Source: an uncultured Actinomycetes bacterium (lineage in GTDB: Bacteria; Actinomycetota; Thermoleophilia; Gaiellales; JAICJC01). From it: a stretch of DNA of 64,000 nucleotides. Under the pieces are notes generated by a model. The model ran no database searches and had not been told where the DNA came from. It saw only the letters and a program-made list of their open reading frames with translations. The position numbers were made by a program, and so were the translations under genes. The stretch is from contig CAVUSN010000017.1 in assembly GCA_963744065.1 (NCBI GenBank), positions 18,496-82,495 of the forward strand, in the 5' to 3' direction. Shown here one piece after another: positions 24,141 to 64,000 of this stretch (position 1 is the first letter of the stretch; each line of letters opens with the position of its first letter).

Positions 24141-24918
24141 GTGCGCCGGGTGGCCGTGCTCGTGCACGGCCGGCCGGAGCGGATCGGCGATGCGCCGGCC
24201 CGCCTCGAGGCGGTGGCAGCGCGGTGCGGGGTGGAGGTGGTCGAGCAGCCCTCCGACGGCGACCTGCTGGTGGTGCTGGGCGGCGACGGCACCATGCTGC
24301 GCGCGCTGCATCTGGTGATCGGCCAGACCGACGCCCTGCCTGGGCGTGAACTACGGCCGGGTCGGGTTCCTGACCGCGATCGACGGCGCCCAGTTGGAGG
24401 CCGGTCTGGAGCAGGCCTTCGCCGGCAGCTACACGGTGGTCGAGGTGCCGACGATCGTCGCCGACGACGGCAGGGAGCCGGTGATGGGCGTGAACGACAT
24501 CGTGCTGACCAGCTCGCTGCTGGGCCGGATGGCGCTTCTGGAGTGGGGGGTGGACGGCGAGTCGCTGGGCGAGCTGGGCTGTGACGGCGCGATCGTGGCC
24601 ACCTCCACCGGCTCCACCGCCTACAACCTGTCGGCCGGCGGCCCGGTGCTGGCCTGGGGCCTGGACGCCTTCGTCGTCTCCTTCGTCTCCCCGCACTCGC
24701 TGCACGCGCGGTCGATGGTGCTCGGCCGCCCGCACGTGCTGGACTTCACGAACCGCTCCGTCGACGTGCCGGTGCAGGTGATCGTGGATGGCCACATCTA
24801 TGGCCGGCTCGAGCCCGGCGGCCGCCTGCACCTGGAGATGGGCAGCCAGCACGCCCACCTGGCCCGGCTGCAGGGCTCGTCCTTCTTCAGCCGCTACCGC
24901 GAGACGTTCTCGCACTGA
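24141..24918 (+). CDS. nadK: NAD kinase (one frameshift ~24335)
   Basis: ..DLLVVLGGDGTMLRA.. then (G)VNYGRVGFLTA..NDIVL..GDGAIVATSTGSTAYNLSAGGPV. The sequence passes from ORF 24087.. to ORF 24346..24918. GTG 24141 is preferred as start; ATG 24087 is also possible. Confidence 0.85.
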
Positions 24919-43998: not shown

Positions 43999-44257
43999 AG
44001 ATGATTGATCGGTAACCCCTGCAGTGTCCTGGGCGGCGAGAACCGAGCTTGCGAAGGACGCAGGGAGCGATGCGGGCTGGTGGCCCGGGCGCGACCGAGG
44101 ACGCAGGCGCAAGGCTTCGCCTTGCGCCGATCGGGAGCGATCCGCTATCCAGCGGATCGCGGACGGGGCGATGGTTCGCAGCCGCAGCCCCGCCGCACTA
44201 CGCCGTGCGTACGACGGTCGTACGGCCAGGTGCGCTGGGGTTACCGATCAATCATCT
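43999..44257 (+). other. 259-bp hairpin-dense element closed by a perfect 21-bp inverted repeat (candidate structured RNA or MITE-like insert)
   Basis: agatgattgatcggtaacccc (43999-44019) is the exact reverse complement of ggggttaccgatcaatcatct (44237-44257). There are internal perfect hairpins at 44106-44128 (10 bp, loop ttc) and 44137-44160 (10 bp, loop atcc), and a palindrome at 44208-44224. Confidence 0.8.
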
Positions 44258-44318
44258 CAACGTCCGGTTTCGACGGTTTCGGGTGGCGCGCCGGGCGGGC
44301 GGCAGTAGAGTGCCGGCT

Positions 44319-46863: not shown

Positions 46864-47588
46864 GGATCGATGTCGCGTTCACACCCGGCGAGTCGGCACC
46901 GGGTGCTGTCGCCATCGTGGTCGACGTCCTGCGCGCCACCACCACCATCACCTATGCGCTCGAGCACGGGTACCAGCGGGTGCTGGCCTGCGGGGAGCTG
47001 GAGCAGGCCCGCGGGCTGGCCGGCCGGCTGGGCGACGGCGCCGTGCTGGCGGGCGAGCGGCAGTGCGTGAAGCCGGAGGGATTCGACCTTGGCAACTCGC
47101 CGCAGGAACTGATCGACGCCGGGCCGCTGGGGACCACCCTGGTGCTGTCGACCACCAACGGCACGCGCGCGATCGTGGCCGCCGCCCAGCACGCCCCGAC
47201 CGTGCTGGTCGGCAGCCTTGCCAACCTGACCGTCTGCGCGGCCGCCGCCGCCCGGGTGGCCCGCGAGGCGGGCGGCCAGGTGCTGGTGCAGTGCGCCGGC
47301 GTCAAGGGCGAGTTCACCATGGACGACGCCTACACGGCCGGTCGCTTCGTGGCCGAGCTGGCGGTGTGGCTGGCGGAGTGGGAGCGCACCGACGCGGCGC
47401 ACGCCGCCGAGCGTCTGGCGGCCGGCTTCGAGAGCGCGGGTGATGGCCTGGCCGCGTCAAAGAGCGCGCGCAACCTGCGTGCCGCCAACCTGTATGACGA
47501 TGTTCGCATGTGCGCCCGCGAGAACGTGCTGGAGGTGGTCGGCCGGGTGCAGGACGTGGATGCCGGGGTGGCGCTCGTCACCGTCTGA
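46860..47588 (+). CDS. comB: 2-phosphosulfolactate phosphatase family protein (ComB-like)
   Basis: ..VVDVLRATTTI..GER......GFDLGNSP......STTNGT.A...., a ComB-family pattern. The TTG start overlaps the ppdK stop. Confidence 0.7.
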   Translation: MRIDVAFTPGESAPGAVAIVVDVLRATTTITYALEHGYQRVLACGELEQARGLAGRLGDGAVLAGERQCVKPEGFDLGNSPQELIDAGPLGTTLVLSTTNGTRAIVAAAQHAPTVLVGSLANLTVCAAAAARVAREAGGQVLVQCAGVKGEFTMDDAYTAGRFVAELAVWLAEWERTDAAHAAERLAAGFESAGDGLAASKSARNLRAANLYDDVRMCARENVLEVVGRVQDVDAGVALVTV

Positions 47589-47673: not shown

Positions 47674-49725
47674 ATGCGCACCTCCCAACGCCGTAGAGCA
47701 CGTCGCATCCGGCGCCGCCGGATCGGTCTGGCGCTGGCCGTCGGCCTGGCCGCGGCCGCCGGCGCGCTGGCGCTCACACGCGGCAACGACGAGCCGCACG
47801 CCAACGCCGCCCAGACCCAGCCCGGCACCAGCCAGCCATCCGGCGCGGCCAGCACGACAACCAACTCGCCTCCGCCCTCGGTTCGCCGGCGGCTGCGCGC
47901 GCAGCTGGCCGGGCGGCTGCCGGTGGCGGTGCAGGATCCCGCCGTCGCCGCCCTGGGCGGCACGGTGTATGCCTTCGGCGGCCTGGAGGCGTCTGGCGCT
48001 TCCTCCGCCCAGGTGGTGCGTCTGAGCGGCGGCCGCGTCCACACCCTGGCGCCGCTTCCCACGGCGCTTCACGATTCCGCAGCGGCCGCGCTGGGCGGAC
48101 AGCTGTACGTGCTGGGCGGGGGCCAGTCGGCCAGCTATTCGGGCATCGGCCGGTATTCGCCGACCGCCGGCTCCACGAAGCTGGTGGGGGCTCTGCCCAC
48201 ACCGCTCTCCGATCTGGCGGTGGCCAGCATGGGGCACACCGCCTACGTGGTCGGCGGGTTCACGGGCAGCCAGTTCTCCGACCGCATCCTGGCCTACACC
48301 GGCGGCGCCGCGGCCCGGCCGGTCGGGCGGCTGCCGCAGGGCCTTCGTTACGCGGCGGTGGCGGCTCTGGGCGGACGCGTTGTGATCGCCGGCGGACGCA
48401 CCGTGAGCGGCCCCTCAAGCGCCATCCTGGCCTTCGACCCGACCTCCGGCAGGGTGCGCCGGCTGGGCACACTGCCGCAGCCGCTGATGCACGCGCAGGC
48501 GGCCGTGCTGGGCGGCGTCATGTACGTGGTGGGCGGGATCACCGCCTCCGGCCAGCCCACAGATCGGGTGCTCGCGATCTCTCCTGCGGGCCGGGCGCGC
48601 GTTGTTGGCCGGCTGCCGCGGCGGCTGTCAGATGCTGGCGTCGCGGCCACGTCCACCGGCCTGGTGGTGGTCGGCGGCTGGGACGGGTCCGGCCAGGTCG
48701 ACTCGGTGTGGTCGCTGCGCTGGGCCGCCGCCCCGGCGTCGAAGCCCAAGCATCACTCGAGCGGCGGAAAGCCGTCGCTGCCGGCCATGTTCAAGGGGCC
48801 GCTTCCGGGCGACCTGCTGATCGCCGACCGCGGCAACAACCGGATCCTGATCGTGAACCCGGCTCACCGCGTGCTGTGGCGGTTCCCCAAGCCGGGCTCC
48901 GGCGTCAGCCTGAACTTCGACGACGACACCTTCTTCACCCCGTCCGGGCGCCAGATCATCTCCAACGAGGAGGAGAACCAGGACATCATCAAGGTCACCT
49001 ACCCGGGCGGCCGGCTGGTGTACCGGTATGGGCATCCCGGTCAGCGGGGCTCCGCGCCCGGGTACATGAACACGCCCGACGACGCCTACGCGCTGCCCGG
49101 CGGGCGGGTGATCGTGGCCGACGCCTACAACTGCCGCGTGCTGGAGCTGCACGGGCAGCGGATCATCCGCATCCTCGGCCACACCGGGGTGTGCGTGCAC
49201 AACCCGCCGTACAGCTTCGGCGACATCAACGGCGACACGCCCATCCCTGGCGGCCAGGTGCTGGTGTCGGAGATCAATGGCGGCTACATCGACGACCTGA
49301 CGCTGTCCGGCCGGCTGGTGCACGTCTACCAGGCGCCGGTCAGCTACGCCTCGGACCCCCAGCTGACCCGGAACGGCAACATCATCGTGGCCGACTACAC
49401 GCGGCCGGGCGGGGTTGTCATCATCAACCGGCACAGCGGGCGGCTGATGTGGTCGTATCGGGTGGCGTCGGGGCCGGGCATGCTCGACCATCCCAGCCTG
49501 GCCGCCATGCTGCCCAACGGCGATGTCATCGTGGGCGACGACTTCAACGACCGGGTCGTGATCATCAACCCGCGGACGAAACGGATCGTGTGGCAGTACG
49601 GGCACGACGCGGTGGGCGGCACCGGGCCCGGCTACCTACATATCCCGGACGGGTTCCAGTTCATCCCCGTGCACCCGGACGGCAGCCCGGCTCCCGGCCT
49701 GATCTGGAAGACGCGGTTCAAGTAG
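47674..49725 (+). CDS. membrane-anchored protein with a Kelch-type propeller and a second NHL/ASST-like beta-propeller
   Basis: Arg-rich N-terminus plus TM (IGLALAVGLAAAAGALAL). Six repeats of the type A(A/V)AALGG.(V/L)YV(L/V)GG follow (Kelch-like). The C-terminal half has GDLLIADRGNNRILIVNP.., VIVADAYNCRVLEL, NIIVADYT..GGVVIINR and VIVGDDFNDRVVIINP (NHL-like blades). Confidence 0.7.
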   Translation: MRTSQRRRARRIRRRRIGLALAVGLAAAAGALALTRGNDEPHANAAQTQPGTSQPSGAASTTTNSPPPSVRRRLRAQLAGRLPVAVQDPAVAALGGTVYAFGGLEASGASSAQVVRLSGGRVHTLAPLPTALHDSAAAALGGQLYVLGGGQSASYSGIGRYSPTAGSTKLVGALPTPLSDLAVASMGHTAYVVGGFTGSQFSDRILAYTGGAAARPVGRLPQGLRYAAVAALGGRVVIAGGRTVSGPSSAILAFDPTSGRVRRLGTLPQPLMHAQAAVLGGVMYVVGGITASGQPTDRVLAISPAGRARVVGRLPRRLSDAGVAATSTGLVVVGGWDGSGQVDSVWSLRWAAAPASKPKHHSSGGKPSLPAMFKGPLPGDLLIADRGNNRILIVNPAHRVLWRFPKPGSGVSLNFDDDTFFTPSGRQIISNEEENQDIIKVTYPGGRLVYRYGHPGQRGSAPGYMNTPDDAYALPGGRVIVADAYNCRVLELHGQRIIRILGHTGVCVHNPPYSFGDINGDTPIPGGQVLVSEINGGYIDDLTLSGRLVHVYQAPVSYASDPQLTRNGNIIVADYTRPGGVVIINRHSGRLMWSYRVASGPGMLDHPSLAAMLPNGDVIVGDDFNDRVVIINPRTKRIVWQYGHDAVGGTGPGYLHIPDGFQFIPVHPDGSPAPGLIWKTRFK

Positions 49726-51767: not shown

Positions 51768-51938
51768 ATGATGGTGCGACGAGTTCCCGAGGCTGAGGAG
51801 TCGTGGGAGTACGCCGATCGGCCGACGGTGCTGGAGTGGGCTCAGGGGCACGTTGCCATCGCGGTCGCAGCGGCCGCGCTGATCTGGTTCGGCGTCGTCT
51901 ACGTGATGACGCTGATCGTTGATCTGTTTATGCGCTAG
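51768..51938 (+). CDS. hypothetical small single-pass membrane protein
   Basis: MMVRRVPEAEESWEYADRPTVLEWAQGHVAIAVAAAALIWFGVVYVMTLIVDLFMR. gagagggg lies upstream. Its tail meets the ECF sigma gene tail-to-tail with a 4-nt overlap. Confidence 0.4.
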   Translation: MMVRRVPEAEESWEYADRPTVLEWAQGHVAIAVAAAALIWFGVVYVMTLIVDLFMR

Positions 51939-52486
51939 GCGCTTGCGGGCGAGGAGCCGGCGGCATCAGATCGCAGCTCGGCCGCGCGGTCGGCCTGCGG
52001 AGCCGGGGCGGAGGACGGGTCGATCATGGCCCGCAGGCGGCCCAGCGCGCGGTGCAGGGCGACCTCGGCCGCGTTCGTCTGCATGTCCAGCAGCTCCGCG
52101 ATCTGGGCGGCCGTCAGGTCGGCGCCGTAGCGCAGGGCGAGCAGCTCGCGATCCCGCGCCGGCAGCGTGGCCATCGCCGTCTGCAGGCTGATGCGGGTGA
52201 TCGAGTCGTGCTCCAGCTGCCCGCTGTCGGGCTGCTCGGGCAGGTCGCCAACCGGTACCTCCTGCTGGCCAGCCCGCTCCGCCAGCACACGGCGGGTGAT
52301 CCCGATCAGCCAGGTGGCCGGGGATCCGCGGGACGGGTCGTAGCTCTTGCGGTAGCGCAGCGCCCGCTCGAACACATCGCTGGTCACGTCCTCAGCGTCC
52401 GGGCCGGCGCCGATCCGGTACGCGACATAGGCGTACACGCGCTGGGCCAGCTCGTCCGGATGGCGGAGGGGGTCGCGACGTCGCAC
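51935..52486 (-). CDS. ECF-type RNA polymerase sigma factor (sigma-70 family)
   Basis: Region 2: AEDVTSDVFERALRYRKSYDPSRGSPATWLIGITRRVL. Region 4: LPARDRELLALRYGADLTAAQIAELLDMQTNAAEVALHRALGRLR. Confidence 0.85.
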   Translation of the reverse strand: MRRRDPLRHPDELAQRVYAYVAYRIGAGPDAEDVTSDVFERALRYRKSYDPSRGSPATWLIGITRRVLAERAGQQEVPVGDLPEQPDSGQLEHDSITRISLQTAMATLPARDRELLALRYGADLTAAQIAELLDMQTNAAEVALHRALGRLRAMIDPSSAPAPQADRAAELRSDAAGSSPASA

Positions 52487-52531
52487 ACTACGAGGGTACG
52501 TGCGGGCGGTCGGCGTGGGAAGGGTGATACC

Positions 52532-52594
52532 GGGGTCGGGTGCCCTTGACCCGACCCCAGAAATGCTGCGGGCCCCGCCACGAACGGGGCCCGC
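52532..52594 (-). terminator. two tandem GC-rich hairpins downstream of the 52624..53061 gene
   Basis: ggggtcgggt/acccgacccc (52532-52558, 10-bp stem, 7-nt loop) and gcgggccccg/cggggcccgc (52568-52594, 10-bp stem, 7-nt loop). They begin 30 nt past the stop of the minus-strand gene. Confidence 0.6.
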
Positions 52595-52623
52595 GCACGC
52601 AACTGACTTCTACCGCTTAGCGG

Positions 52624-53061
52624 CTACCAGCCGAAGCCGTAGCCCCCTCCCTTACCGCCGTAGTTGCCGTAGTTGCCGTTGCCGCCCTGGTCGCCACCGT
52701 TGTGGCAGTGCTTCTTGGGAGGCTTGGGCGGGTAGTTCTTGTAGCAGCTGCCGCTCGAAGAGCCGCCGTACCCGTTGTAGTTGCCCCAGCTGTTCCCGCC
52801 CTTGAGCGAGTTCGACTGCGAGTTCGAGCCGAACGAGTGGCTCACGGTGCCGAACGCGAAACCGACGCCGCCCATGGCGCTCATGGCGCCGAGGGTGGAC
52901 GTGGTCAGCACCAGCGCAAGCGCTGTTCGGCGTGCCGGGCTGGTACCCGGATGCACCCGCCGGGCGATCGATCGCTGGACGCTGCGATCGAGCGTGGGCC
53001 GGCCCGACCGAAGCTCGCCCTCAAGCTTCGAAATCGGATCCTCTGGTCGAAAGATGTCCAC
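52624..53061 (-). CDS. single-pass membrane protein with a Gly/Tyr/Asn/Ser-rich low-complexity C-terminal tail
   Basis: 145 aa with a charged N-terminus and one TM (ALALVLTTSTLGAMSAMGGVGFAFG). The tail is ..GSNSQSNSLKGGNSWGNYNGYGGSSSGSCYKNYPPKPPKKHCHNGGDQGGNGNYGNYGGKGGGYGFGW*. No family recognised. Confidence 0.6.
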   Translation of the reverse strand: MDIFRPEDPISKLEGELRSGRPTLDRSVQRSIARRVHPGTSPARRTALALVLTTSTLGAMSAMGGVGFAFGTVSHSFGSNSQSNSLKGGNSWGNYNGYGGSSSGSCYKNYPPKPPKKHCHNGGDQGGNGNYGNYGGKGGGYGFGW

Positions 53062-53151: not shown

Positions 53152-55089
53152 CTAGTTGGACGTCGGCGGCGGCTGGATGCCCGGCTCGTTGGGGTCCAGC
53201 TGGCGAGCCCGCACCAGGGCCGCCTCGCGGGCCTTGCCGGCCGACGCCCGGGCCACCCCGAACCAGGTCTGCCAGTCGTGGCCGTTGTCCTGCGTGGCCC
53301 GTTTGAAGGCGGTCACGGCGGCCGGGAAGTTCCCCTGGCCGATGCGCGCCTCGCCCAGGGCGATCCACGACGTCTCCATCCACGGCGCCCAGCTGGTGGC
53401 CGTGTTGGCCTCGCTGACGGCGCTGGCCCAGTTGCCGCTGGCCGACGCATCCGCACTGCGCGAGATGGCCAGGTTGACGCGCAGGCCGTAGGCGGTGATC
53501 AGGGTCAAGAGGACGATCGCCGTCACGGCCACCGCCCGCACCCGCGGCAGGTCGATCGGCGGCGAGGGGTCGGGGCGGGCCTCCAGCATGATCGCCATGG
53601 CCACCGCCAGCGCCGCCATCGTCACCCCGGTCAGCTGCCAGTCCCAGTCGGCGCCGGTGTGCAGCAGGAAGGCGGCGTAGACGCCGAGGGCGATCGGCAC
53701 CAGAGGATGCGCACGGGCCCGCCAGGCGGCGTACAGCGCCGGCAGCAGCCCGGCCAGAAGCAGCAGCAGGCCGACCGGGCCGAGATCCGCCAGCGTCTCC
53801 AGGTACAGGCTGTGAGCCCACTGGGCGCGCAGAGTGCCGGTTCGGTGCTGCAGGTAGTAGGCGGCGAACTGGCCGGAGCCGGCGCCCACCAGCGGGTGCG
53901 CCTCGTATTCGTGCCAGGCCGCCTTCCACAGGCTCAGGCGGGCGTCGCCGGACAGGCTGAACAGGCGCGCGTTCAGGCTCTTGCCCTGGTGGCCGCGGGT
54001 CGGCTTGAAACCGCCCGGGGCCGACGACGAGAAGCCGTTGTACACCCGGTGCCAGATCTGCGCAGGCGAGCCGTAGACGGCAAACGGGGTGATCACCGCG
54101 ATCACGATCAGGCCCAGCGCCAGCCAGTGGCCGGTGCGGGTGACCTGCGCCGACGGGCTCCAGCGGCGCATGACGACGCCCAGCCCGAGCACGCTTGCGA
54201 CAAGCGGGATGGCGCCGGCGGCCATCACGATGGCCAGCCGGTGGCCCTGGGTGGTGGTGCTCGCGATCGGCGAGGACAGGTGGGTGAGGGCCGACGAGTT
54301 GGCTGCCACGCCCACGTCCAGGGCCAGCCACGGCGCGGCGGCCAGCCCGGTCACCAGCAGTTGCCAGCGCTGGCGGTCGAAGGCCAGCGCCACCACCAGC
54401 CCGAAGGCCAGCGAGATCCAGGCACCGCGGCTGAAGGTCTGATACAGGCCTGTCGCCAGCACCGGCATGGTGGCCGCTGCGAGTCCCCGAGCCAGCAGGG
54501 TGCGTGACCGGGTGGCCATGCCGAGCGCGAGCAGAAGGCCCATGGCGGCGGTGATGCCCACGCCGTTCCAGTAGCCCACCGGCGCCGCCAGCCGGCCGGT
54601 CTGGGCGATCCCGTTGATGGCCGTGGTGGAGGGGAAGAGCAGGCCGGTCAGCCCGTCGCCGACGACCACGGTCAGCGCGCCCAGCGTGCCGGCCAGGACG
54701 GCTGTTGTCGAGCCGCGACGGGCCACCAGCGCCAGCGCCGAGAGGCCGGCAACGTACACGATCACCCGCTCTGCCGAGAGCGCCGCCGAGCCGATGTCGT
54801 GCGACCACACGGCCGAGATCAGCATCCACACGCCCAGCAGCCCGATCCCGCCGATGCTGACAAGCTCCGCCCGGGATGGCTGCTGGCAGTCGGTCAGCAC
54901 CAGCATGAGGCCGGCAGCCCACAGCAGCGCCGCTGCGCTCCAGCCCCAGGCCGGCGGGTTGTAGCCGCCGTTGGCTGCCGCCAGCGGCGCCACCGCCAGG
55001 AACGCAAGCACGCCCGGCAGCAGCGTGTGCAGCTCGGGCCGGTGCAGCACGGCCCGCGGCGTCGACATGGCAGCCTCGTGGCTGCTCAT
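53152..55089 (-). CDS. O-antigen ligase / Wzy_C-family polytopic membrane protein with a TPR-like C-terminal domain
   Basis: Ten or more hydrophobic helices with ..LYQTFSRGAWISLAFGLVV.. and ..AHSLYLETLADLGPVG.. (Wzy_C-like loop). The C-terminus WIALGEARIGQGNFPAAVTAFKRATQDNGHDWQTWFGVA.. is TPR-like. Confidence 0.7.
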   Translation of the reverse strand: MSSHEAAMSTPRAVLHRPELHTLLPGVLAFLAVAPLAAANGGYNPPAWGWSAAALLWAAGLMLVLTDCQQPSRAELVSIGGIGLLGVWMLISAVWSHDIGSAALSAERVIVYVAGLSALALVARRGSTTAVLAGTLGALTVVVGDGLTGLLFPSTTAINGIAQTGRLAAPVGYWNGVGITAAMGLLLALGMATRSRTLLARGLAAATMPVLATGLYQTFSRGAWISLAFGLVVALAFDRQRWQLLVTGLAAAPWLALDVGVAANSSALTHLSSPIASTTTQGHRLAIVMAAGAIPLVASVLGLGVVMRRWSPSAQVTRTGHWLALGLIVIAVITPFAVYGSPAQIWHRVYNGFSSSAPGGFKPTRGHQGKSLNARLFSLSGDARLSLWKAAWHEYEAHPLVGAGSGQFAAYYLQHRTGTLRAQWAHSLYLETLADLGPVGLLLLLAGLLPALYAAWRARAHPLVPIALGVYAAFLLHTGADWDWQLTGVTMAALAVAMAIMLEARPDPSPPIDLPRVRAVAVTAIVLLTLITAYGLRVNLAISRSADASASGNWASAVSEANTATSWAPWMETSWIALGEARIGQGNFPAAVTAFKRATQDNGHDWQTWFGVARASAGKAREAALVRARQLDPNEPGIQPPPTSN

Positions 55090-55746: not shown

Positions 55747-57099
55747 CTAGGCCGCGGGCTCGGCGCCGGCGGTCTGGCCGGTGGCCAGCGGCGGCCGCGG
55801 CGTGCTCTGCATGTGCCCGATCTCGGCCAGCAGCCCCCGCCACCACAGGATCCCGCCCACCCACAGCGCCAGCGCCAGGCCGATGGCGGCACCCTCGGCG
55901 CCGCCCAGGTAGGCCCCCGCTGTGGTCGCCGGCAGCGCCATCACGCCGGTGATCAGTCGCGCTCGCAGACTGCGTTTGGCCGCCGCCAGCGCCCGCAGGC
56001 CGACGGTGGCGCCGGTCAGCATGCCGGCCGCGGCCATCACCGCCGCGTAGGCCAGGATGACCCTGTGGGCGGGCTCCCAGGAGTGGCGCAGGAGTGCGTG
56101 TCCGTAGCGGGTGGGCAGGAAGTACATGCCGACCCCGAACACCACCGACGCGCCGGCCAGGCCGCCGGCCACCGCCACGGTGAACCGCAGCATGCGTTGC
56201 GGGGAGCGCTTGGACAGGTGCACGGCCTCGGTGATGGCGGGTGCCGTGATGCCCATGTTGAGGATGTTCAGCGGGCCCAGCACGACCTGCGCGCCGCGCA
56301 GCGCGCCGGCCGCCGCCAGTCCGCCGAAAGCTCCGGCCATGTACATCGAGCCGGCGTTGGCCGCGCCGCGGGCGATGAACTCGACCAGGTAGCGGGGCGA
56401 CAGGTCGCGCTGCGAGCGCAGCCAGGCCAGCGTGCTCAGCGGCGCCGGCACGATCCGGGCCTGCACGATCCCAAAAAGGGCGGCCGCGTTGGCCGCGCCG
56501 CCCCAGGCCAGCACGAACATCGGCGTCGTCCGCCGGCCGGCGATCCACACCGCCCCGACGAAGACGATCTGGGCGATCGCCCAGGCGAAGTCGTTGGCAA
56601 ACGCCCAGCTCCCGCGCCGGCGCGAGAAGAACGCGGTGCGCCAGGTGTCCTGCACGATCAGTCCGGGCATGCACAGCGCCAGCGCCAGCAGCGAATCGCG
56701 CAGCGTACCGGTGAACGCGAATGCGGCGACCGCGCAGCCCAGCCCCGAGATCCCGCCCAGCACCATCGCTGCGCCGGTCGACCTGCGGGTGCCCTCCCGC
56801 CAGGTCTCCTCCGCGGTGGCGCTGAAGCGCACGCCCAGCGGCTCGGAGCAGAACGCGCGGGTCGCGCCGAGCGTCAGATTGTAGGTGGTGAACGCCAGGC
56901 CGAACGCGCCGAAGCTGGAGATGCCGACCGCCCGCGCAACCAGCACGGCCAGGGCGAAGTTGGTGATGCTGGACAGCGCCTGGTCGGCCAATCCCCAGCC
57001 CAGTCGGCCGGCGTGCGGCCTGCCGGCTGCGGCGCGAGGCTGGGCGGACATGCCGGCCATCGTAGCTTGTGACCGTTTCCAGGGGCGTACGCGCGACAC
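55747..57099 (-). CDS. polysaccharide flippase-like membrane protein (MOP/Wzx superfamily)
   Basis: About 12 hydrophobic helices. ..LADQALSSITNFALAVLVAR.. is typical of Wzx-type 'polysaccharide biosynthesis protein' N-termini. The real start may be the internal ATG at ~57060 or ~57051. Confidence 0.6.
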   Translation of the reverse strand: MSRVRPWKRSQATMAGMSAQPRAAAGRPHAGRLGWGLADQALSSITNFALAVLVARAVGISSFGAFGLAFTTYNLTLGATRAFCSEPLGVRFSATAEETWREGTRRSTGAAMVLGGISGLGCAVAAFAFTGTLRDSLLALALCMPGLIVQDTWRTAFFSRRRGSWAFANDFAWAIAQIVFVGAVWIAGRRTTPMFVLAWGGAANAAALFGIVQARIVPAPLSTLAWLRSQRDLSPRYLVEFIARGAANAGSMYMAGAFGGLAAAGALRGAQVVLGPLNILNMGITAPAITEAVHLSKRSPQRMLRFTVAVAGGLAGASVVFGVGMYFLPTRYGHALLRHSWEPAHRVILAYAAVMAAAGMLTGATVGLRALAAAKRSLRARLITGVMALPATTAGAYLGGAEGAAIGLALALWVGGILWWRGLLAEIGHMQSTPRPPLATGQTAGAEPAA

Positions 57100-57136: not shown

Positions 57137-58330
57137 GTGGACCAGCCATTCCGGCTTCGCGGGTGGGTGCTGGCGGCGGCGCTCGCGCTGGCGGTGGCCG
57201 GCTGCGGGTCGGGTTCGACGCCGCCGCCGCCACCGGCGCCGCCGCCCGACATCGCGCTGTATGCGGGCATGCAGGGCCACCCGCGGCCGTCTGCGGCCGA
57301 CCTGGCGGTGATCGCCCGCTCGGCCCGGCTGGTGGTCGGGACGGTGGCGCAGCTGCAGGTCGTGGCCGGCCAGCTGCGTCAGCTGACGCCCGGCATCAAG
57401 CTGTACGCCTACGTGAACGGCCAGTTCGTGCACCCCGACCAGGGCTCGACCTACCCGGCGTCCTGGTACCTGCGATCGGCGAGCGGCCAGCAGGTGCGCT
57501 CCAGGGTGTTCGGCAACTACCTGATGAACCCACTGCAGCCGGGCTGGACGGCGCAGGTGACGAGCTCCTGCCGGGCCGCCCTGCAGGCGGTGCGAGGGCT
57601 GACCGGCTGCTTTCTGGACATGATCGGCCCGGCGCCGCTGCGGCCCGGGTACGACATGGCGGGGCAGCCTCCGGTCGACCCGGGCACCGGTCAGCCGTTC
57701 GTGCCGTCGGCCTATCTGGCCCTGACCGGCGGCCTGGCCAGGGCGGTGCAGACACAGACCGGGCATCCGGTGATCGCAAACGGCGTGGAGTCGGGCGTGC
57801 ACTACTACGTCGTACCCACCGGCGGGCTGGCCGACGACGTCGCCGGGCTGGAGGTGGAGCACTGGATGGGCCTGAACGACACCCAGGCCATGAAACCGCA
57901 GGCCTGGGCCCAGAACGAGCAGATGCTGATCGATCTGGCCCGCCGTGGGCGCACCGTGCTGGTCAACTTCCACACCCGCAGCGCCGGTGCGGAGGGCGAC
58001 CGCCAGTTCGCGGTGGCGTCGTTCCTGCTGGCCGCCGGCCCCGGCGACTACCTGCAGATCGAGCCGCCCGGCTCGACGGTGCCCAGCTGGCGCTACCCCT
58101 CGCCCGATTACCGCGCCGGCCTGGGCCGGGCGCTGGAATCGCACGCCCGCATCGGCGACTACCTGCGGGGCGGCGTTTACCGCCGCGCGTACACAAACGG
58201 ACTGGTGCTGGTCAACCCGTCGGAGGCACCCGTGACGGTCCGGCTGGGGCCTGGCTACAAGGCGGCAAACGGGCAACCGCTGAAGTCGGTGACGGTGCCT
58301 GCGCACGCCGGCCTGACCATCCACCGCTAG
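57137..58330 (+). CDS. lipoprotein, possibly a glycoside-hydrolase-like TIM-barrel protein (GHL-type); family assignment tentative
   Basis: Lipobox LALAVAGCGSGS and a Pro-rich linker, then ~360 aa (..KLYAYVNG..CFLDMIG..VIANGVE..LEVEHWMG..VLVNFH..). The genomic context is an EPS locus. GTG 57137 lies within ORF 56885..58330. Confidence 0.45.
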   Translation: MDQPFRLRGWVLAAALALAVAGCGSGSTPPPPPAPPPDIALYAGMQGHPRPSAADLAVIARSARLVVGTVAQLQVVAGQLRQLTPGIKLYAYVNGQFVHPDQGSTYPASWYLRSASGQQVRSRVFGNYLMNPLQPGWTAQVTSSCRAALQAVRGLTGCFLDMIGPAPLRPGYDMAGQPPVDPGTGQPFVPSAYLALTGGLARAVQTQTGHPVIANGVESGVHYYVVPTGGLADDVAGLEVEHWMGLNDTQAMKPQAWAQNEQMLIDLARRGRTVLVNFHTRSAGAEGDRQFAVASFLLAAGPGDYLQIEPPGSTVPSWRYPSPDYRAGLGRALESHARIGDYLRGGVYRRAYTNGLVLVNPSEAPVTVRLGPGYKAANGQPLKSVTVPAHAGLTIHR

Positions 58331-58388
58331 CTGACGGGCCGTCCGGTGGCCAGTTGCCGAGTCACCCTCTGCCTCTCATAATCAGGCT

Positions 58389-59189
58389 GTGGGCCAACTG
58401 CCAGCGCGTCCCCTGATTCTGGCGTACCACGCCGTGGATGCGGCGTGGCGCTCACCGCTTGCCGTGTCCGAGCACGACCTGGCGGCGCACGCCGCCGACC
58501 TGCGCGACCGCGGCTTCAGCGGGCTCACGCTGACCGAGTCGGAGACCCGGCGGGCGTCCGGAACGCTGCCGCAGCGGTCGGTTGTCTTCACCTTCGACGA
58601 CGGCTACGAGAGCGTCGGCCGGGCGGCCCGCATCCTCGCCCACCACGGCTTTCCGGGCACCGTGTTCGTGGTCACCGACTTCGTCGGCTCCGACCGGCCG
58701 ATGAGCTGGTTCGGGGTCGATCACGAGCCGCCCGAGATGATGCGCTCGCTCGACTGGGAGCAGCTGGCTGAGCTGCGCGAGGACGGCTGGGAGGTGGGCT
58801 CGCACACGGTCTCGCATCCGCTCATGACCTCGCTCGACGACGACCAGCTGGACGAGCAGTTGGTCACCTCGCGGCGGCTGATCGGCGAGCGGCTGGGGGA
58901 GTGCACGTCGCTGGCGTATCCCTACGGGGCGGCCGACCAGCGGGTGGCCGAGGCCGCCCAGCGGGCCGGCTACACCGTCGCCTGCACGCTGACCGGGGCC
59001 GAGCTGGTGGATGAGCCGCTGCTTCGGCCGCGGCTAGCCATGGCGGCCGCCGACCACGGCATGCGGCTGCGCCTGAAGACCTCCGGCGCCGGCCTGCGGC
59101 TGCGCCGATCTCCGCTGGCCCGGGCGGTCCGGCGGGCTCGCCGGCGGCGGCCGTGGATGCCCGACGGCGACCCCGGCGCGGCGACCTGA
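58389..59189 (+). CDS. polysaccharide deacetylase (CE4 / NodB-homology family)
   Basis: ..VVFTFDDGYESV......L..HGFPGTVFVV......W..L.EL...GWEVGSHTVSHP.L..L......SLAYPYG. are the NodB motifs (TFDDG, H(S/T)xxH, YP.G). Confidence 0.85.
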   Translation: MGQLPARPLILAYHAVDAAWRSPLAVSEHDLAAHAADLRDRGFSGLTLTESETRRASGTLPQRSVVFTFDDGYESVGRAARILAHHGFPGTVFVVTDFVGSDRPMSWFGVDHEPPEMMRSLDWEQLAELREDGWEVGSHTVSHPLMTSLDDDQLDEQLVTSRRLIGERLGECTSLAYPYGAADQRVAEAAQRAGYTVACTLTGAELVDEPLLRPRLAMAAADHGMRLRLKTSGAGLRLRRSPLARAVRRARRRRPWMPDGDPGAAT

Positions 59190-60010
59190 TGCAACCGGCG
59201 GCGGACACCGGCCAGCATGACGCGCGGCCGCTGGGGCCAGACACGCCCGCGCTCTTCGTGTGCGGCCTGCACCGCAGCGGCACCTCGCTCGTGCACCGCT
59301 GCCTGGCCCGGCATCCCGAGGTGTTCGGCTTCCACGACACCGGCATGCCCGAGGACGAGGGCCAGCACCTGCAGACCGTCTACCCGCCGGCCTACCGGCA
59401 CGGCGGCCCGGGCCGGTTCGGCTTCGACCCGGCATCGCATCTGACCGAAGAATCGCCGCTGGTGACCGACGCCAATCGGGCCAGGCTGATCGAGGAGTGG
59501 GGCAGCCACTGCTCGGGCGGCGGCGGCCTGTTCGTCGAGAAGTCGCCCCCCAACCTGGTGCGCACGCGGTTTCTGCAGGCGATGTTCCCGCGGGCCTCGT
59601 TCCTGGTCGTCGTCCGCCATCCGGCGGCCGTGGCCGGCGCCACCCAGAAGTGGTCGCACACGCCGTCCACCTCGCTGGTGCACCACTGGGTTGCCTGTCA
59701 CACCACGCTGCGCGCCGACGCGCCGCAGCTCGAGCGGGTGCGGGTGGTCCGCTACGAGGAGATGGTGGCCGACCCGGACGCCAGCCTGGCCGCCATCTAC
59801 GACTGGCTTGGACTCGCGCCGCAGGCATCCGGCGAGCCGGTCCGCGCCGACGTCAACGCCCGCTACTTCGCGCGCTGGCGAAGCCGCGCCCGGCTGGCTG
59901 GCCGGCTCGACCGCAAGCTGGCCGCCCGCCGCTATGAGGGGGACGTGCGCAGCTGGGGCTACAGCCTGCGCGACCTGGACTGGCTGGGCCCGCTGGAGCC
60001 GCTGGCGTGA
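59189..60010 (+). CDS. sulfotransferase family protein
   Basis: PAPS 5'-phosphosulfate-binding loop FVCGLHRSGTSLVHRCL. ..FLVVVRHP.. is the 3'-phosphate-binding region. The ATG overlaps the deacetylase stop (TGATG). Confidence 0.75.
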   Translation: MQPAADTGQHDARPLGPDTPALFVCGLHRSGTSLVHRCLARHPEVFGFHDTGMPEDEGQHLQTVYPPAYRHGGPGRFGFDPASHLTEESPLVTDANRARLIEEWGSHCSGGGGLFVEKSPPNLVRTRFLQAMFPRASFLVVVRHPAAVAGATQKWSHTPSTSLVHHWVACHTTLRADAPQLERVRVVRYEEMVADPDASLAAIYDWLGLAPQASGEPVRADVNARYFARWRSRARLAGRLDRKLAARRYEGDVRSWGYSLRDLDWLGPLEPLA

Positions 60011-60963
60011 CCGATCCCCGCGTGCGGGTGGTGTACATCGCCGGCGCCGGCCGCAGCGGCTCGACGCTGCTTGGCATGCTGCTGGGCGCCCTGCCGGGAA
60101 CGGCTGCGGTGGGCGAGTTGCGGCACATGTGGCGGCGCGGTGTGCTGAACGACGAGCTGTGCGGATGTGGCCAGCGGTTCAGCGAATGCCCGTTCTGGAC
60201 CGAGGTCGGCGAGCGGGCCTTCGGGGGCTGGACCAACGCGCCGGCCCAGCGCATGATCGAGCTGCAGCGCCAGGTTGACCGCTTCCGCCGGCTGCCAGCG
60301 GTGGCCGCCGGCTCGCTGGCCCCGCGCACGCACGCACGCGTGCGCGAATATGTCGACACCACCGCGCGCGTGTACACGGCGGTGTCCAGGGCCGCCGGCG
60401 ACGCGGTCGTGGTGGACACCGGCAAGAGCGTCGCCTTCGCCGCCATGGTCGGCCGGCATCCCGGGCTGGATCTGCGGGTGCTGCACCTGGTCCGCGACCC
60501 GCGGGCCGTGTCCTACTCCTGGATGCGCACCCGGCCGATGCCCGAGGTGCACTCCAAGGAGGCCTTCATGGCCACCTTCAGCCCGTTCCAGTCGTCGCTC
60601 GTATGGCTGGGAAACAACGCCGCCGCCGACGCCCTGCGGCTGATCCGGCTGCCGGTCACCGACCTGCGCTATGAGCAGCTGCTGGGCGAGGGCCGCGAGC
60701 AGGCGCTGGCGCGGATCGCCGACTGCATGGGTCAGCCCGCCGCCAGCCTGGCCGCGCTGGCTGGCGACGACGTGGCCATCGGCGTCCAGCACACGGTGGC
60801 TGGAAACCCGGCCCGCTTCGAGACCGGGCGCGTGCGCCTGCGGGCAGACGAGGAGTGGCGGACCGGCATGCGCTCGGCCGACCGGCGGCTGGTGTCAACT
60901 GTCACCTTTCCGCTGATGTTGCGGTATGGATACCACCTCATGAAATCCCCACGAGCGGGTTGA
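60007..60963 (+). CDS. sulfotransferase family protein (second, divergent copy)
   Basis: VVYIAGAGRSGSTLLGMLLG (PSB loop) and ..LRVLHLVRDPRAVSYS (3'PB region). GTG start with a 4-nt overlap with the previous gene. Confidence 0.75.
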   Translation: MTDPRVRVVYIAGAGRSGSTLLGMLLGALPGTAAVGELRHMWRRGVLNDELCGCGQRFSECPFWTEVGERAFGGWTNAPAQRMIELQRQVDRFRRLPAVAAGSLAPRTHARVREYVDTTARVYTAVSRAAGDAVVVDTGKSVAFAAMVGRHPGLDLRVLHLVRDPRAVSYSWMRTRPMPEVHSKEAFMATFSPFQSSLVWLGNNAAADALRLIRLPVTDLRYEQLLGEGREQALARIADCMGQPAASLAALAGDDVAIGVQHTVAGNPARFETGRVRLRADEEWRTGMRSADRRLVSTVTFPLMLRYGYHLMKSPRAG

Positions 60964-61079: not shown

Positions 61080-62091
61080 GTGGCTAGACGCGTTCTCGTA
61101 ACCGGCGCCGGCGGATTCATCGGCCACCATCTGGTGACTGCGCTGCGCGCGCAGGGGCACACCGTGCGCGGTGTCGATCTCAAGCATCCCGAGTATTCGG
61201 CCACCGACGCCGACGAGTTCATGGTCGCCGACCTGCGCGACCCAGCCTCCGCGGCCGAGGTGATGGATGGAGTCGACGCAGGTGTACGCGCTGGCCGCCG
61301 ACATGGGCGGCATGGGCTACATCTCGAGCCACAACGCCGAGATCCTGCACGCCAACTCGCTGATCAACCTGAACACGGTTGAGGCCGCCCGCCGGGCCGG
61401 CGTGCGCCGCTACCTGTACACCTCCTCGGCCTGCATCTACCCCGAGTTCCTGCAGACGGACGCCGACGTCAAGCCGCTGCGCGAGCAGGACGCCTACCCG
61501 GCTCAGCCGCAGGACGGCTACGGGTGGGAGAAGCTGATGGCGGAGCTGCTGTGTACGTACTACCGCGAGGACCATGGGCTGGACACGCGGATCGTGCGCT
61601 TCCACAACATCTTCGGGCCGCTCGGCACCTGGGACGGCGGGCGCGAGAAGGCGCCGGCCGCCATGTGCCGCAAGGTGGCCATGGCCAAGCTGACCGGCGA
61701 GCCCCGCGTCGAGATCTGGGGCGACGGCGAGCAGACCCGCTCCTTCTGCTACATCGACGACACCGTCGAGGGTCTGATCCGGCTGATGGCGTCCGACTAC
61801 CCGGACCCGCTCAACCTGGGCCAGGACCGGCTGATCTCGATCAACGACATGGCCCGCTTGATCGCCGGCATCGCCGGCACCGAGATCGAGCTGGTGCACA
61901 TCGACGGGCCGCAGGGCGTGCGCGGGCGCAACTCCGACAACACGCGGCTGCGCGAGGTGTTGGGGTGGGAGCCGGCGATCTCGCTGGAGGACGGCCTGGC
62001 CACGACGTACCATTGGATCGAGCAACAGGTTTCCGAGCGGCTGGAGGAGGGACGTCCAACGGCGGCTGATGCACTCGTACCCTCAGGTTGA
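61080..62091 (+). CDS. NAD-dependent sugar-nucleotide epimerase, GDP-mannose 3,5-epimerase-like (one frameshift ~61280)
   Basis: RVLVTGAGGFIGHHL (Rossmann fold), then ..YALAADMGGMGYI..YTSSACIYP..PQDGYGWEKLMAELLCTYY..IVRFHNIFGPLGTWDGGREKAPAAMCRK..GDGEQTRSFCYIDD closely follows the GME pattern (..RFHNIYGP.GTW.GGREKAPAAFCRK). The sequence passes from ORF 61044.. to ORF 61267..62091. Confidence 0.8.
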
Positions 62092-62881
62092 ACTCTCGTC
62101 CCGGTACGACACCGGGACCGTGCTGGGCGTCAATTACTACGTCGGTGACATCGAGTCGGCGACGCAGCTGGTGCTGGAGCGGGCGGAGTCCGGGCTGGGC
62201 GGGTTCTCCTGCCTGGCCGGCGTGCATGGGATCGTGCACGCGCAGCACCGGCCGGAGCTGATGGCGGCGCTGGGCGACGCCTGGCTCAACTTCACCGACG
62301 GCGCGCCGGTGGCGTGGCTGATGCGCCGCTGCGGCTGGCCGACGACCCACAGGGTGGCCGGGCCGGACCTGATGCCGGCGGTGATCGAGGCCGGCCAGAC
62401 CCGCGGCATCCGCCATTACCTGTTCGGCTCCACGCCCGACACCCTGGCCCTGCTCGAGGACTCGCTGCGCCGCGAGTATCCTGGCGTGCAGATCGCGGGC
62501 AGCATGTCGCCGCCCTTCCGGCCGCTGTCGGACGCAGAGGAGATGGAGATCGCCGCGCAGATCCGGGCCGCCGAGCCGCACATCGTGTGGGTGGGCCTGG
62601 GCCTGCCCAAGCAGGACGAGTGGATGCACCGCAACGCCCCCCGCCTGGGCCCGGTGCTGTCGATGGGGGTAGGTGCCGCCTTCGACTTCCTGGCCGGCAC
62701 CAAGCCGCGGGCGCCGCTGTGGATGCGCTCGCACGGTCTGGAGTGGCTGCACCGGGTGCGCAGCGAGCCGCGCCGGCTGGCCTACCGCTACCTCACGACC
62801 AACTCCGAGTTCATCGCCCGGGCCGGGGTGGAGGTGCTCCGGCACCGCGCCGTACGGCCGCGGGACACCCGGAGCGCGTAG
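62069..62881 (+). CDS. WecB/TagA/CpsF-family glycosyltransferase
   Basis: ..NFTDGAPVAW....G......RVAGPDLM.......YLFG......L.......YPG..I.G...PPFR......I.....P.IVWVGLG.PKQ.EWM......V..GVGAAFDF.AG...RAP.WM...GLEW..R. Confidence 0.8.
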   Translation: MHSYPQVELSSRYDTGTVLGVNYYVGDIESATQLVLERAESGLGGFSCLAGVHGIVHAQHRPELMAALGDAWLNFTDGAPVAWLMRRCGWPTTHRVAGPDLMPAVIEAGQTRGIRHYLFGSTPDTLALLEDSLRREYPGVQIAGSMSPPFRPLSDAEEMEIAAQIRAAEPHIVWVGLGLPKQDEWMHRNAPRLGPVLSMGVGAAFDFLAGTKPRAPLWMRSHGLEWLHRVRSEPRRLAYRYLTTNSEFIARAGVEVLRHRAVRPRDTRSA

Positions 62882-62883: not shown

Positions 62884-64000
62884 ATGGGCCTTGCTGTCCG
62901 CGCTCCGGCAGAACCCAGCGCGCCGCGCAGCGGCGGCGGCTTCGGCGTGCCCTCCATGCGCACACTGGGGCTGGCCACGGTCGGCCTGGTGCTGGCCGCG
63001 CTGGCCGGTCCGCTGGTGGCCCTGTCGCCGCCCGCGGCGGTGGCCATGGCGGTCGTGTTGGTGCTGCTGGCGGCGCTGGCGCTGATCCGCCAGCGGCCGA
63101 TCGGCGAGGTGCTGATCATCCTCATGATCCTGATCAGCGGCCTGGTCGACATCCCGCAGCGGATCAGCGTCGGGCCCACCACCGGCCAGGGTGCCGAGAC
63201 GGTGGGCTTCCTGGGCATCATGCTGCTGGTCATCCTGAACGGCTATCTGGGCTCGGGCGTGCCCCAGATCGCCCGGGCGTGGCCGATCGGGCTGTTTGTG
63301 CTGTGGACGTTCATGTCCTTCTCGTGGGGCGGCGCTCCCAAGCAGGGTCTGCAGAACGTGTTCGTCTACGCCGGCTTCTTCGGCGCCATGCTGATCGGCG
63401 CCACCGTCGCCCGGTGGCAGCCCGAGGGCGCGTACCGGGCGCTGGACATGGCCTTCAAGCTGGCGGCCGGGCTCGGCCTGACCCTGTACGCGGTGGGCCT
63501 GGCCATCGGCGGCCACGGCACCCGGGTGGTGGTCTCGCCGCGGCCGTTCGGCCTGTTCGGCGTGATCATCATCGCCTGGTTTGCCAGCGGCGACCGGATC
63601 GGCATCCCGTGGGCCAAGTGGGTTGTGGTGGCAACCGTGCTGCTGACGGTGCTGTCGCTGTCGCGTTCGGCGCTGGCCGCGCAGTTGGCGGTGATCGTGC
63701 TGGCCCGTTTCGACCCGCACAGCCTGCGCTCCTACATCCGCACCGGCGCGGCGGTGATCGGCTCGGCCATCGTGGCCCTGGTGGCGGTGTTCGAGTACGC
63801 CCCCCTGCACCACCGCTTCTTCCACGGCGACACCACAAGCATCGGCGGGTTCACGCTCAACGTGACCGGCCGCGACGCGCTGTGGTCGGCCAACTGGGGC
63901 TGGTTCAAGGAGAAGCCGTGGATCGGCTGGGGCGCCGGGTCGTCAGACACCATGACCGCCGCGCTTCCCGGTCACAATGCCGGCCACCCGCACAACGACT
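62884..64000 (+). CDS. O-antigen polymerase/ligase (Wzy_C)-like membrane protein, 3' end outside window
   Basis: ATG 62884 lies 3 nt after the previous stop. The frame is open to the window end and encodes ten or more hydrophobic helices, ..VLSLSRSALAAQLAVIVL.. and ..NAGHPHND.. (Wzy_C loop). It is absent from the ORF track because no stop occurs in-window. Confidence 0.7.
   Translation, partial: MGLAVRAPAEPSAPRSGGGFGVPSMRTLGLATVGLVLAALAGPLVALSPPAAVAMAVVLVLLAALALIRQRPIGEVLIILMILISGLVDIPQRISVGPTTGQGAETVGFLGIMLLVILNGYLGSGVPQIARAWPIGLFVLWTFMSFSWGGAPKQGLQNVFVYAGFFGAMLIGATVARWQPEGAYRALDMAFKLAAGLGLTLYAVGLAIGGHGTRVVVSPRPFGLFGVIIIAWFASGDRIGIPWAKWVVVATVLLTVLSLSRSALAAQLAVIVLARFDPHSLRSYIRTGAAVIGSAIVALVAVFEYAPLHHRFFHGDTTSIGGFTLNVTGRDALWSANWGWFKEKPWIGWGAGSSDTMTAALPGHNAGHPHND

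Follow-up and report, generated by a model that had tools for sequence, protein, structure and literature searches.

Which molecule does a bacterium modify when a polysaccharide deacetylase and two sulfotransferases are encoded by overlapping genes, and is the deacetylation tied to the sulfation? The question is raised by three open reading frames (ORFs) on the plus strand of a 64,000-nucleotide (nt) stretch of contig CAVUSN010000017.1 (positions 18,496 to 82,495), analysed at its full length and referred to here as the window. The closest named relatives of the window are Gaiellales and Thermoleophilia metagenome-assembled genomes (MAGs), and the host is an uncultured Gaiellales-like soil actinobacterium. 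The first ORF encodes a deacetylase of family CE4, and the other two encode sulfotransferases of the 3′-phosphoadenosine 5′-phosphosulfate (PAPS) type, designated ST1 and ST2. The trio is likely to be a cytoplasmic tailoring operon for a Wzy-dependent cell-envelope heteropolysaccharide. A preliminary description had also read into it the logic of the animal N-deacetylase/N-sulfotransferase (NDST) enzymes, and this part of the description fares poorly.

The overlapping gene trio

The features of the module are as follows.

58354..58382, + strand: promoter-like element TTGCCG-17-CATAAT, by consensus match alone; 6 nt separate the −10 hexamer from the CE4 GTG
58389..59189, + strand: CE4 polysaccharide deacetylase of PgaB/IcaB-like subtype, predicted cytoplasmic, 266 amino acids (aa); Polysacc_deac_1 match
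59189..60010, + strand: ST1, PAPS-type sulfotransferase, 273 aa; Sulfotransfer_3 match, motifs, AlphaFold model
60007..60963, + strand: ST2, second, unrelated PAPS-type sulfotransferase, 318 aa; motifs, AlphaFold model, Pfam matches of orthologues

The CE4 stop codon and the ST1 start codon have a single A in common in the junction TGATG (TGA 59187–59189, ATG 59189–59191), and in the ST1/ST2 junction GTGA the GTG at 60007–60009 overlaps the TGA at 60008–60010. The ST1 length is counted from the ATG; an alternative GTG start lies upstream at 59153. Third-position GC is 0.90–0.92 in all three genes, and the whole-window figure is 0.72 (G+C = 71.8%). The metagenome contigs L170 and L171 show the trio in identical order with the TGATG and (G/A)TGA junctions kept, and the proteins are 73–91% identical. 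This places the arrangement beyond chance. The overlap of CE4 stop and ST1 start is conserved in L001 and L084 as well as in L170 and L171, and CE4-ST1-ST2 is a genuine, well-conserved module. An exact-sequence look-up gave no match for ST1 or for protein P0001, and ST2 matched one 2-kb contig only. The promoter-like element is the sole sigma-70-like match within 55–64 kb of the window, where shuffled sequences predict 0.3. As its −10 hexamer lies 6 nt from the CE4 GTG, the operon transcript may be leaderless.

CE4 gives a Pfam Polysacc_deac_1 score of 91.2 bits (gathering score 23.1, E-value = 6e-26). Among NCBIfam models it is matched best by the N-terminal part of PgaB, followed by IcaB and HfsH, with NodB weaker; the scores are well under the equivalog cutoffs, e.g. 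64 bits for PgaB compared with 322. CE4 shares the Asp-Asp and His-His motifs with PgaB, IcaB and HfsH, and a ‘YH’ histidine that is typical of PgaB. Among 27 family members the catalytic base and metal triad (F69-D70-D71, H139/H143) are invariant, and the histidine of the N-terminal ‘AYH’, H14, is at least 90% conserved. H14 aligns to the PgaB N-terminal region and may be the equivalent of the PgaB catalytic histidine. The canonical C-terminal LxH catalytic-acid position is not conserved in the family, the window protein having E there. Family CE4 takes in O-deacetylases too. A scan of CE4, ST1 and ST2 for hydrophobic or signal segments showed none, and CE4 is predicted to be cytoplasmic on this account. 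It differs in this respect from PgaB and IcaB, which have a signal peptide; HfsH, by comparison, is also a cytoplasmic enzyme that works ahead of export. CE4 also differs from PgaB, IcaB and HfsH in an Arg-rich C-terminal tail of its own (RLRLK..RRS..R..RRxRRRRxWxP, residues ∼218–266, window 59040–59189), which is conserved in its family. Association with the membrane or with a lipid carrier is a possible role for this tail.

ST1 scores 99.5 bits with Pfam Sulfotransfer_3 (gathering score 27, E-value = 4e-28) and displays the invariant motifs GLHRSGT, EDEGQHLQ, EKSPPN and RHP..A.AT.K. The 5′-phosphosulfate-binding (5′-PSB) loop GLHRSGTS follows the strand at residues 21–26, and the 3′-phosphate-binding (3′-PB) motif RHP..A.AT follows the strand at 136–142. 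In ST2 the 5′-PSB loop GAGRSGST follows the strand at 6–12 and the 3′-PB motif HLVRDPRAVSYS the strand at 154–162. Within the GRSGST loop R16, G18 and T20 are invariant and S17 is at least 90% conserved. HLVRD.RAV.S is invariant also, as is E37, 21 residues beyond the loop arginine. The ST2 family further has three invariant cysteines, C52, C54 and C61, in the sequence CGCG..F..CPFW (residues 52–61, window 60160–60190). The cluster could be a metal-binding or disulfide element, which would be atypical for sulfotransferases.

The AlphaFold models are confident (pLDDT 87 for ST1, 89 for ST2), and the top Foldseek matches of both in the Protein Data Bank (PDB) are sulfotransferases with a probability of 1.00. 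For ST1 the tyrosylprotein sulfotransferases TPST1/2 come first (TM 0.63), followed by the CurM and OLS sulfotransferases, Stf1 and Stf9. For ST2 the best matches are the CurM and OLS sulfotransferases and TPST. A sequence search of the PDB with ST1 and ST2 gives weak matches only, again to TPST, CurM and OLS, and these permit no substrate assignment; neither predicted fold nor sequence assigns an acceptor to either protein. ST1 and ST2 have no detectable similarity to each other (BLASTP E-value = 0.54), and a recent duplication is rejected on this ground. From motifs and modelled folds the two are genuine PAPS-type sulfotransferases of separate families.

The preliminary description had named the three overlapping genes, a NodB-type deacetylase with two PAPS-type sulfotransferases, their two 5′-PSB loops and the small likeness between ST1 and ST2. 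All of these are borne out: the ORFs and junctions recur in L170 and L171, Pfam, motifs and AlphaFold/Foldseek agree on the families, and both loops sit in strand-loop-helix positions. The classification by profile that it had proposed succeeds for ST1 and falls just short for ST2, which scores 26.2 bits with Sulfotransfer_3, slightly under the gathering score of 27. Many ST2 orthologues pass Sulfotransfer_3 (PF13469, precomputed).

The surface-polysaccharide cluster and the two sulfotransferase families

The trio is situated inside a surface-polysaccharide cluster whose genes are closely spaced around it, and thus a sulfated sugar polymer is the probable product of the cell, whether as an exopolysaccharide (EPS), a capsule or a wall-linked polymer. 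The cluster genes are listed here.

51935..52486, − strand: extracytoplasmic function (ECF)-type sigma factor, upstream cluster edge; Sigma70_r2, Sigma70_r4_2
53152..55089, − strand: Wzy_C (O-antigen polymerase/ligase-like) membrane protein with C-terminal TPR; Wzy_C E-value = 2.6e-12, TPR matches
55747..57099, − strand: 450-aa multi-pass membrane protein, ∼8 hydrophobic segments; flippase candidate by position only
57167..58330, + strand: GHL15-family lipoprotein, putative extracytoplasmic glycoside hydrolase; ends 58 nt upstream of CE4
61080..62091, + strand: NAD-dependent sugar epimerase/reductase of the SDR family; Epimerase family matches both frame pieces
62069..62881, + strand: WecG/TagA/CpsF-family (GT26) glycosyltransferase; Glyco_tran_WecG E-value = 1.6e-57, TIGR00696 138 bits, above cutoff
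62884..64000, + strand: second Wzy_C membrane protein; Wzy_C E-value = 4e-10, runs off the window end

The GHL15 lipoprotein (identical at 100% to the 387-aa P0361) has the lipobox LAVAGC and scores 34.4 bits with GHL15 (gathering score 27), and all 25 aligned relatives match this family too. The assignment depends on the shorter start, the long ORF start giving no match. Its family profile matches structures of GHL15, GH114, endo-1,3-fucanase and PelA. The SDR epimerase also gives a weak NCBIfam match of GDP-L-fucose synthase type. It is split into two frames by an extra G at ∼61278, located against the intact L027 orthologue; orthologues are intact in L027, L014 and L170 (336 aa in L170), and the frameshift (window 61270–61285) is either an assembly indel or the mark of a pseudogene. 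The second Wzy_C gene starts with an ATG at 62884, 3 nt past the WecG stop, and the first Wzy_C protein shows about 11 hydrophobic segments. Homologues of the 450-aa membrane protein, 45–49% identical, are found near CE4 relatives in L085, L086 and L120. This protein gave no match in Pfam (E-value up to 5) or NCBIfam, and no significant BLASTP similarity to the MATE-like and Polysacc_synt flippases from related loci.

A syntenic 30.6-kb JGI contig has GHL15 upstream of the module and epimerase and WecG downstream, and after these come Wzy_C, GT4, Wzz/tyrosine kinase and one more Wzy_C protein, a long one. GT4 and Wzz/tyrosine kinase are also present in L014. L170 displays epimerase and WecG downstream of the trio, and L171 has a 403-aa protein at the upstream GHL15 position. 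WecG is the only glycosyltransferase in the window, which ends before the position of GT4 and Wzz/tyrosine kinase in the JGI contig; the cluster extends past the window end.

Both sulfotransferase families recur in such clusters. Members of the ST1 family occupy at least 551 loci in species-representative genomes, which span many phyla. The best 80 of these loci, mostly from Thermoleophilia, were examined; their neighbour genes were clustered and the recurrent clusters annotated. Loci beyond Thermoleophilia (39–64% identity to ST1 within the best 80) come from Phycisphaerae, Planctomycetes, Anaerolineales, Acidobacteria, Chromatiaceae and Methylophilaceae, with further carriers in Desulfallas, Pedobacter, Arcobacter and a Thermoplasmatota archaeon. 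The numbers of loci with a given neighbour are:

GT4, 25; Wzz/tyrosine kinase, 22; MATE-like flippase, 21; ST2, 20
third sulfotransferase, 15; Alg14-like, 15; Wzy, 12; Alg13-like, 9
GH5, 11; CE4, 10; GT2, 9; Bac_transf, 9
Polysacc_synt_3, 7; sulfatases, 3

When GT4, Wzz/tyrosine kinase, flippases, Wzy, Alg13/14, GT2 and Bac_transf are taken as polysaccharide markers, 53 of the 70 ST1 loci with a length of 10 kb or more show one family or more and 30 of the 70 show three or more. These counts are lower bounds, because only recurrent clusters were annotated. A gene termed c28 (∼270 aa) is conserved in related loci and gave no family match. The sulfatase genes (Sulfatase + SGSH_C) directly adjoin ST1 homologues in their three loci, which include L075:8385–9968; SGSH_C is the C-terminal domain of N-sulphoglucosamine sulphohydrolase.

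ST1 and ST2 are found together in more than 25 loci, and in about 20 loci they pair without CE4. In loci designated type B, ST2 lies 1–2.3 kb upstream of ST1, after Alg14-Alg13, and there is no CE4; L009, L015 and L037 show this order. In the metagenome proteins P0178, P0181, P0186, P0189 and P0197 a Glyco_tran_28_C (Alg13-like) domain is joined to ST2. The fusion and the adjacency to Alg14-Alg13 suggest that ST2 acts near an early, membrane-associated glycosyl transfer step. ST2 homologues are also found within polysaccharide clusters of cultured bacteria, in Sinorhizobium pSymB and in Nonomuraea gerenzanensis, where the homologue (44% identity) has Bac_transf, WecG, a flippase, another sulfotransferase and Wzy as neighbours. 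The preliminary description had proposed a translationally coupled module that tailors an envelope glycan by sulfation, and this agrees with the same-strand polysaccharide genes on both sides of the trio and with the occurrence of the ST1 and ST2 families mostly in Wzx/Wzy clusters.

In the pathway we propose, the WecG/TagA-type enzyme, together with further glycosyltransferases encoded beyond the window, would assemble a lipid-linked repeat unit on the inner side of the membrane. The soluble CE4 would take the acetyl group off an N-acetylhexosamine of the lipid-linked intermediate. ST1 and ST2 would each sulfate a different position with PAPS, most probably hydroxyls, and the unit would then be flipped, after which the Wzy-like proteins would polymerise it and the GHL15 lipoprotein would process it extracellularly. 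PAPS would be supplied from genes elsewhere in the genome. tblastn of the related loci for PAPS genes showed an APS-kinase match in L060 only and weak CysN-like matches in three planctomycete loci. The APS-kinase-like segment, L060:13345–13839 (Desulfallas), lies 3 kb from ST1, and the CysN-like matches lie near 16 kb in L019, L032 and L057, ∼6 kb from ST1. Thus PAPS genes appear to be occasionally linked to the ST1 family.

The proposed tie between deacetylase and sulfotransferase, and other readings

A neighbour-joining tree of ST1 places all CE4-coupled copies in one Gaiellales-like clade (window, L001, L004–L006, L010, L084, L087, L094, L096, L100 and L102). L014 (sister to L005), L024 and L027 fall within this clade and are without CE4, and L014 and L027 retain epimerase and WecG; CE4 was lost in these three. 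The sister clades of the coupled clade are type B loci, with ST1 and ST2 and no CE4. CE4 is in reach at 10 of ∼80 ST1 loci, and the residues of ST1 that are invariant are the same in loci with and without it. From the side of the deacetylase, a metagenome scan showed at least 568 CE4 relatives. ST1 is directly downstream in 7 of the 80 that were fetched, all 57–60% identical (with a gap of ∼960 nt in L095), and L084, fetched separately, shares the arrangement. The order CE4-then-ST1 is kept across orthologues that are 57–91% identical at CE4. A widespread CE4 subtype, P0293, has other genes around it, and a sulfotransferase lies there at a distance of 7 kb. A PIG-L deacetylase as substitute partner in loci without CE4 was sought by tblastn, which is insensitive for PIG-L, and one match was found, in L040. 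Obligate co-occurrence of sulfotransferase and deacetylase was thus tested and fails. Taken from these distributions, the CE4-ST1 coupling is real and conserved, yet lineage-restricted and dispensable for ST1, and the ST1-ST2 association is older and more robust.

These distributions bear on the proposal that the trio is a split analogue of NDST, in which CE4 would de-N-acetylate a hexosamine and the coupled ST1 (or ST2) would sulfate the freed amine to give an N-sulfated glycan. NDST combines a metal-dependent (beta/alpha)7 deacetylase, with a His-His-Asp triad in NDST1, and a PAPS sulfotransferase (PMC10864358), and here two such activities are coupled at the level of the genes by the overlap of CE4 stop and ST1 start and by the conserved gene order. 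N-linked sulfate is reported in the EPS of Pontiella (PMC7356697) and of granular sludge (PMC10483923), and the GHL15, GH114 and PelA relatives of the lipoprotein suggest a hexosamine-rich polymer. However, NDST is one fused Golgi enzyme with an Agd3-like deacetylase, and ST1 and ST2 are nearer to TPST and CurM than to its N-sulfotransferase (NST) domain. NDST1/NST are distant matches of ST1, at ranks 19–22 (E-value = 5e-5 at rank 19, to 1.7e-4), with the 3-OSTs likewise lower down, and are absent among the ST2 matches listed. The genetic coupling itself is confined to one clade and lost within it, the type B loci do without it, most CE4 relatives have no adjoining ST1, and ST1 keeps its invariant residues with or without CE4. 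The NDST-like reading is accordingly unlikely, and its strict form, a natural bacterial counterpart of NDST in which ST1 would N-sulfate the CE4-exposed hexosamine amine on the lipid-linked unit, is rather improbable. N-sulfation is possible but not supported, because CE4 is restricted to a clade and lost there, the sulfotransferases usually occur without it and their folds are nearest to TPST and CurM. O-sulfation at two positions, which the preliminary description had offered as a caveat, is now the better-supported option.

Several observations weigh against a polysaccharide as the target, and some of them fit a module that tailors a non-polymer, for example a nucleotide sugar, a glycolipid or a small metabolite in sulfonated or sulfated form, the position among polysaccharide genes being secondary. 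In L001, L004–L006, L010 and L084, most genomes of the coupled clade, the module has no glycosyltransferase or Wzy within 10 kb, and in this sister sub-lineage it adjoins genes for ComA/ComB (sulfolactate), a methyltransferase, a GNAT acetyltransferase and a ligase of the ATP-grasp type. The structures solved nearest to ST1 and ST2 belong to tyrosylprotein and polyketide sulfotransferases and not to carbohydrate enzymes, and the closest folds include CurM, OLS, Stf1 and Stf9. The window displays no priming transferase, chain-length regulator or recognisable Wzx, its 450-aa membrane protein is without family assignment and its epimerase gene is frameshifted. Pfam scans of the ORFs selected by third-position GC across the window found no PAPS-synthesis gene, and tblastn with Sinorhizobium NodQ, CysD and CysQ gave no match in the window. 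The host is an uncultured MAG, and a sulfated polymer is predicted from its genes. Against a non-polymer stand the polysaccharide genes around the module in the window, L170, L171 and the JGI contig, the Wzx/Wzy clusters typical of ST1 and ST2 elsewhere, and the L001 genome itself, which also contains L037, a type B polysaccharide cluster that is complete and could be the target of the L001 module in trans. A non-polymer target is given a small probability. It is very improbable that ST1, ST2 or both are tyrosine sulfotransferases of proteins or peptides, like TPST or RaxST. TPST2 and TPST1 are the best solved relatives of ST1 (phmmer E-value = 3e-7, Foldseek TM ∼0.63) and ST2 matches TPST as well, but the identity is only 14–22% and Sulfotransfer_3 is a broad family that takes in NodH (PMC11625862). 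Moreover, glycan genes dominate the neighbourhood, and no substrate peptide or dedicated exporter was recognised among the neighbours inspected, for which no systematic search was made. The cytoplasmic tailoring of a Wzy-dependent heteropolysaccharide is retained as the likely function of the trio.

The loci of the L001 type have an organisation of their own. In L001:9204–16822 and L084:10001–17552, CE4-ST1 is followed by a 373-aa protein and by ST2 on the opposite strand, and then by ComA (phosphosulfolactate synthase), ComB, the ATP-grasp protein and the methyltransferase. The 373-aa protein shows a weak beta-propeller repeat match only. A link of sulfation with sulfolactate chemistry is possible in these loci.

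The window also contains a ComB-like 2-phosphosulfolactate phosphatase gene (46860–47588), which follows PPDK with a 4-nt overlap; the PPDK-ComB pairing is syntenic in L001, L005, L006, L014 and L084. Between this gene and the polysaccharide cluster lies a 683-aa protein with Kelch/NHL/PQQ-like beta-propeller repeats (47674–49725). At the upstream cluster edge a Gly-rich 145-aa protein without family match adjoins the ECF sigma factor (window 51935–53061), and the two may be a sigma/anti-sigma pair controlling the cluster. The remainder of the window consists of housekeeping genes. PPDK is split into two overlapping ORFs (44049–46863), and AlaS and pyruvate carboxylase are also in pieces (fragmented genes at 4266–6444 and 18738–21167). 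These fragments suggest a window rich in indels, which a MAG built from long reads would be expected to show. Few ORFs in 21167–24346 pass the coding-composition filter; there, as in the whole window, an Rfam scan gave no match.

Known systems and meaning of the locus

Among the closest known parallels is synechan (xss) of Synechocystis sp. PCC 6803, a proven sulfated EPS. As in the window, two sulfotransferases of distinct subfamilies, XssA and XssE, are found in a Wzx/Wzy EPS cluster, and both are thought to modify the repeat unit on the cytoplasmic side of the membrane while it is linked to lipid (PMC8205485). The window resembles this cluster in having Wzy-type proteins, here two of the Wzy_C family, and in carrying sulfotransferase genes inside the cluster, where those of the window lie between the GHL15 and the epimerase/WecG genes. 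The synechan system differs in being cyanobacterial and plasmid-borne, and a deacetylase is nowhere mentioned in the paper (PMC8205485). tblastn against plasmids gave no Synechocystis match for ST1 and none among the ST2 matches listed.

An actinomycete example is wps-1 of Actinoplanes missouriensis, a Wzx/Wzy/Wzz cluster with two sulfotransferases of different families (WpsB, WpsH) and a glycoside hydrolase. Both sulfotransferases are required for sporangium formation, and the predicted product is a sulfated polysaccharide (PMC13390465). The wps-1 cluster has no reported deacetylase, although one is found in the separate wps-3 cluster (PMC13390465). The likeness of wps-1 to the trio is one of description; it is the similar Nonomuraea cluster that has the 44% identical ST2 homologue.

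The nodP2-smb21248 region of Sinorhizobium meliloti pSymB is a predicted sulfated surface-polysaccharide cluster (PMC5498481). It carries three sulfotransferases, PIG-L and CE4 deacetylases, Wzy, Wzz and glycosyltransferases, and one of its sulfotransferases is a full-length homologue of ST2 (29% identical, E-value = 1e-28). Unlike the window it has PAPS genes of its own (nodP2Q2, cysQ), and its deacetylases are not adjacent to the sulfotransferases. The pSymB CE4 shows no detectable similarity to the window CE4, nor does the ‘ATP-binding protein’ beside the ST2 homologue show any to ST1, and the search of plasmids with ST1 yielded no record from Sinorhizobium meliloti. Rhizobial NodB with NodH/NoeE is another case of a CE4 enzyme and Sulfotransfer_3-type carbohydrate sulfotransferases in one pathway, NodH being a member of PF13469 (PMC11625862). 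The Nod factor differs in that the substrate is a chito-oligosaccharide signal and not a polymer, and the sulfate is O-linked and added without regard to the residue that is deacetylated. The NCBIfam matches of the window proteins to this system are weak (NodB, 29 bits, cutoff 240; NoeE, 33 bits, cutoff 500).

With synechan proven, and wps-1 and the pSymB cluster described, the preliminary description overstated the case in calling sulfated envelope polysaccharides of bacteria poorly characterised. Papers of 2021 and 2026 describe bacterial sulfated polysaccharides as reported only from cyanobacteria (PMC8205485, PMC13390465), and a review of 2024 counts six genera (PMC11625862). The trait is uncommon but already predicted in other bacteria. 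The module thus adds to the known polysaccharide clusters bearing sulfotransferases, and translational coupling to CE4 is a lineage-specific feature.

If the NDST-like reading were true, ST1 of this clade would be the first N-sulfotransferase for a polysaccharide to be identified in bacteria, and N-linked sulfate in environmental EPS would have one of its sources in it. A soluble bacterial deacetylase/N-sulfotransferase pair would then be of interest to heparin bioengineering, for which active NDST expression in bacteria has been called a bottleneck (PMC13353177). The value of the locus lies less in this heparan analogy and more in drawing attention to ST1 and ST2 as two large, conserved, uncharacterised families whose polysaccharide clusters occur in many phyla from soil and water. 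Sulfate, including N-linked sulfate, has been measured in the EPS of sludge granules (PMC10483923) and of Pontiella (PMC7356697), the responsible enzymes not being known; a literature search on sulfated EPS and sulfotransferases in Acidobacteria gave no result. ST1 and ST2 are concrete candidates for these missing EPS-sulfating enzymes, and cultured carriers are at hand in Nonomuraea and Sinorhizobium for ST2 and in Desulfallas, Sulfitobacter and Paracoccus for ST1. The two families may explain sulfated EPS far outside the cyanobacteria.

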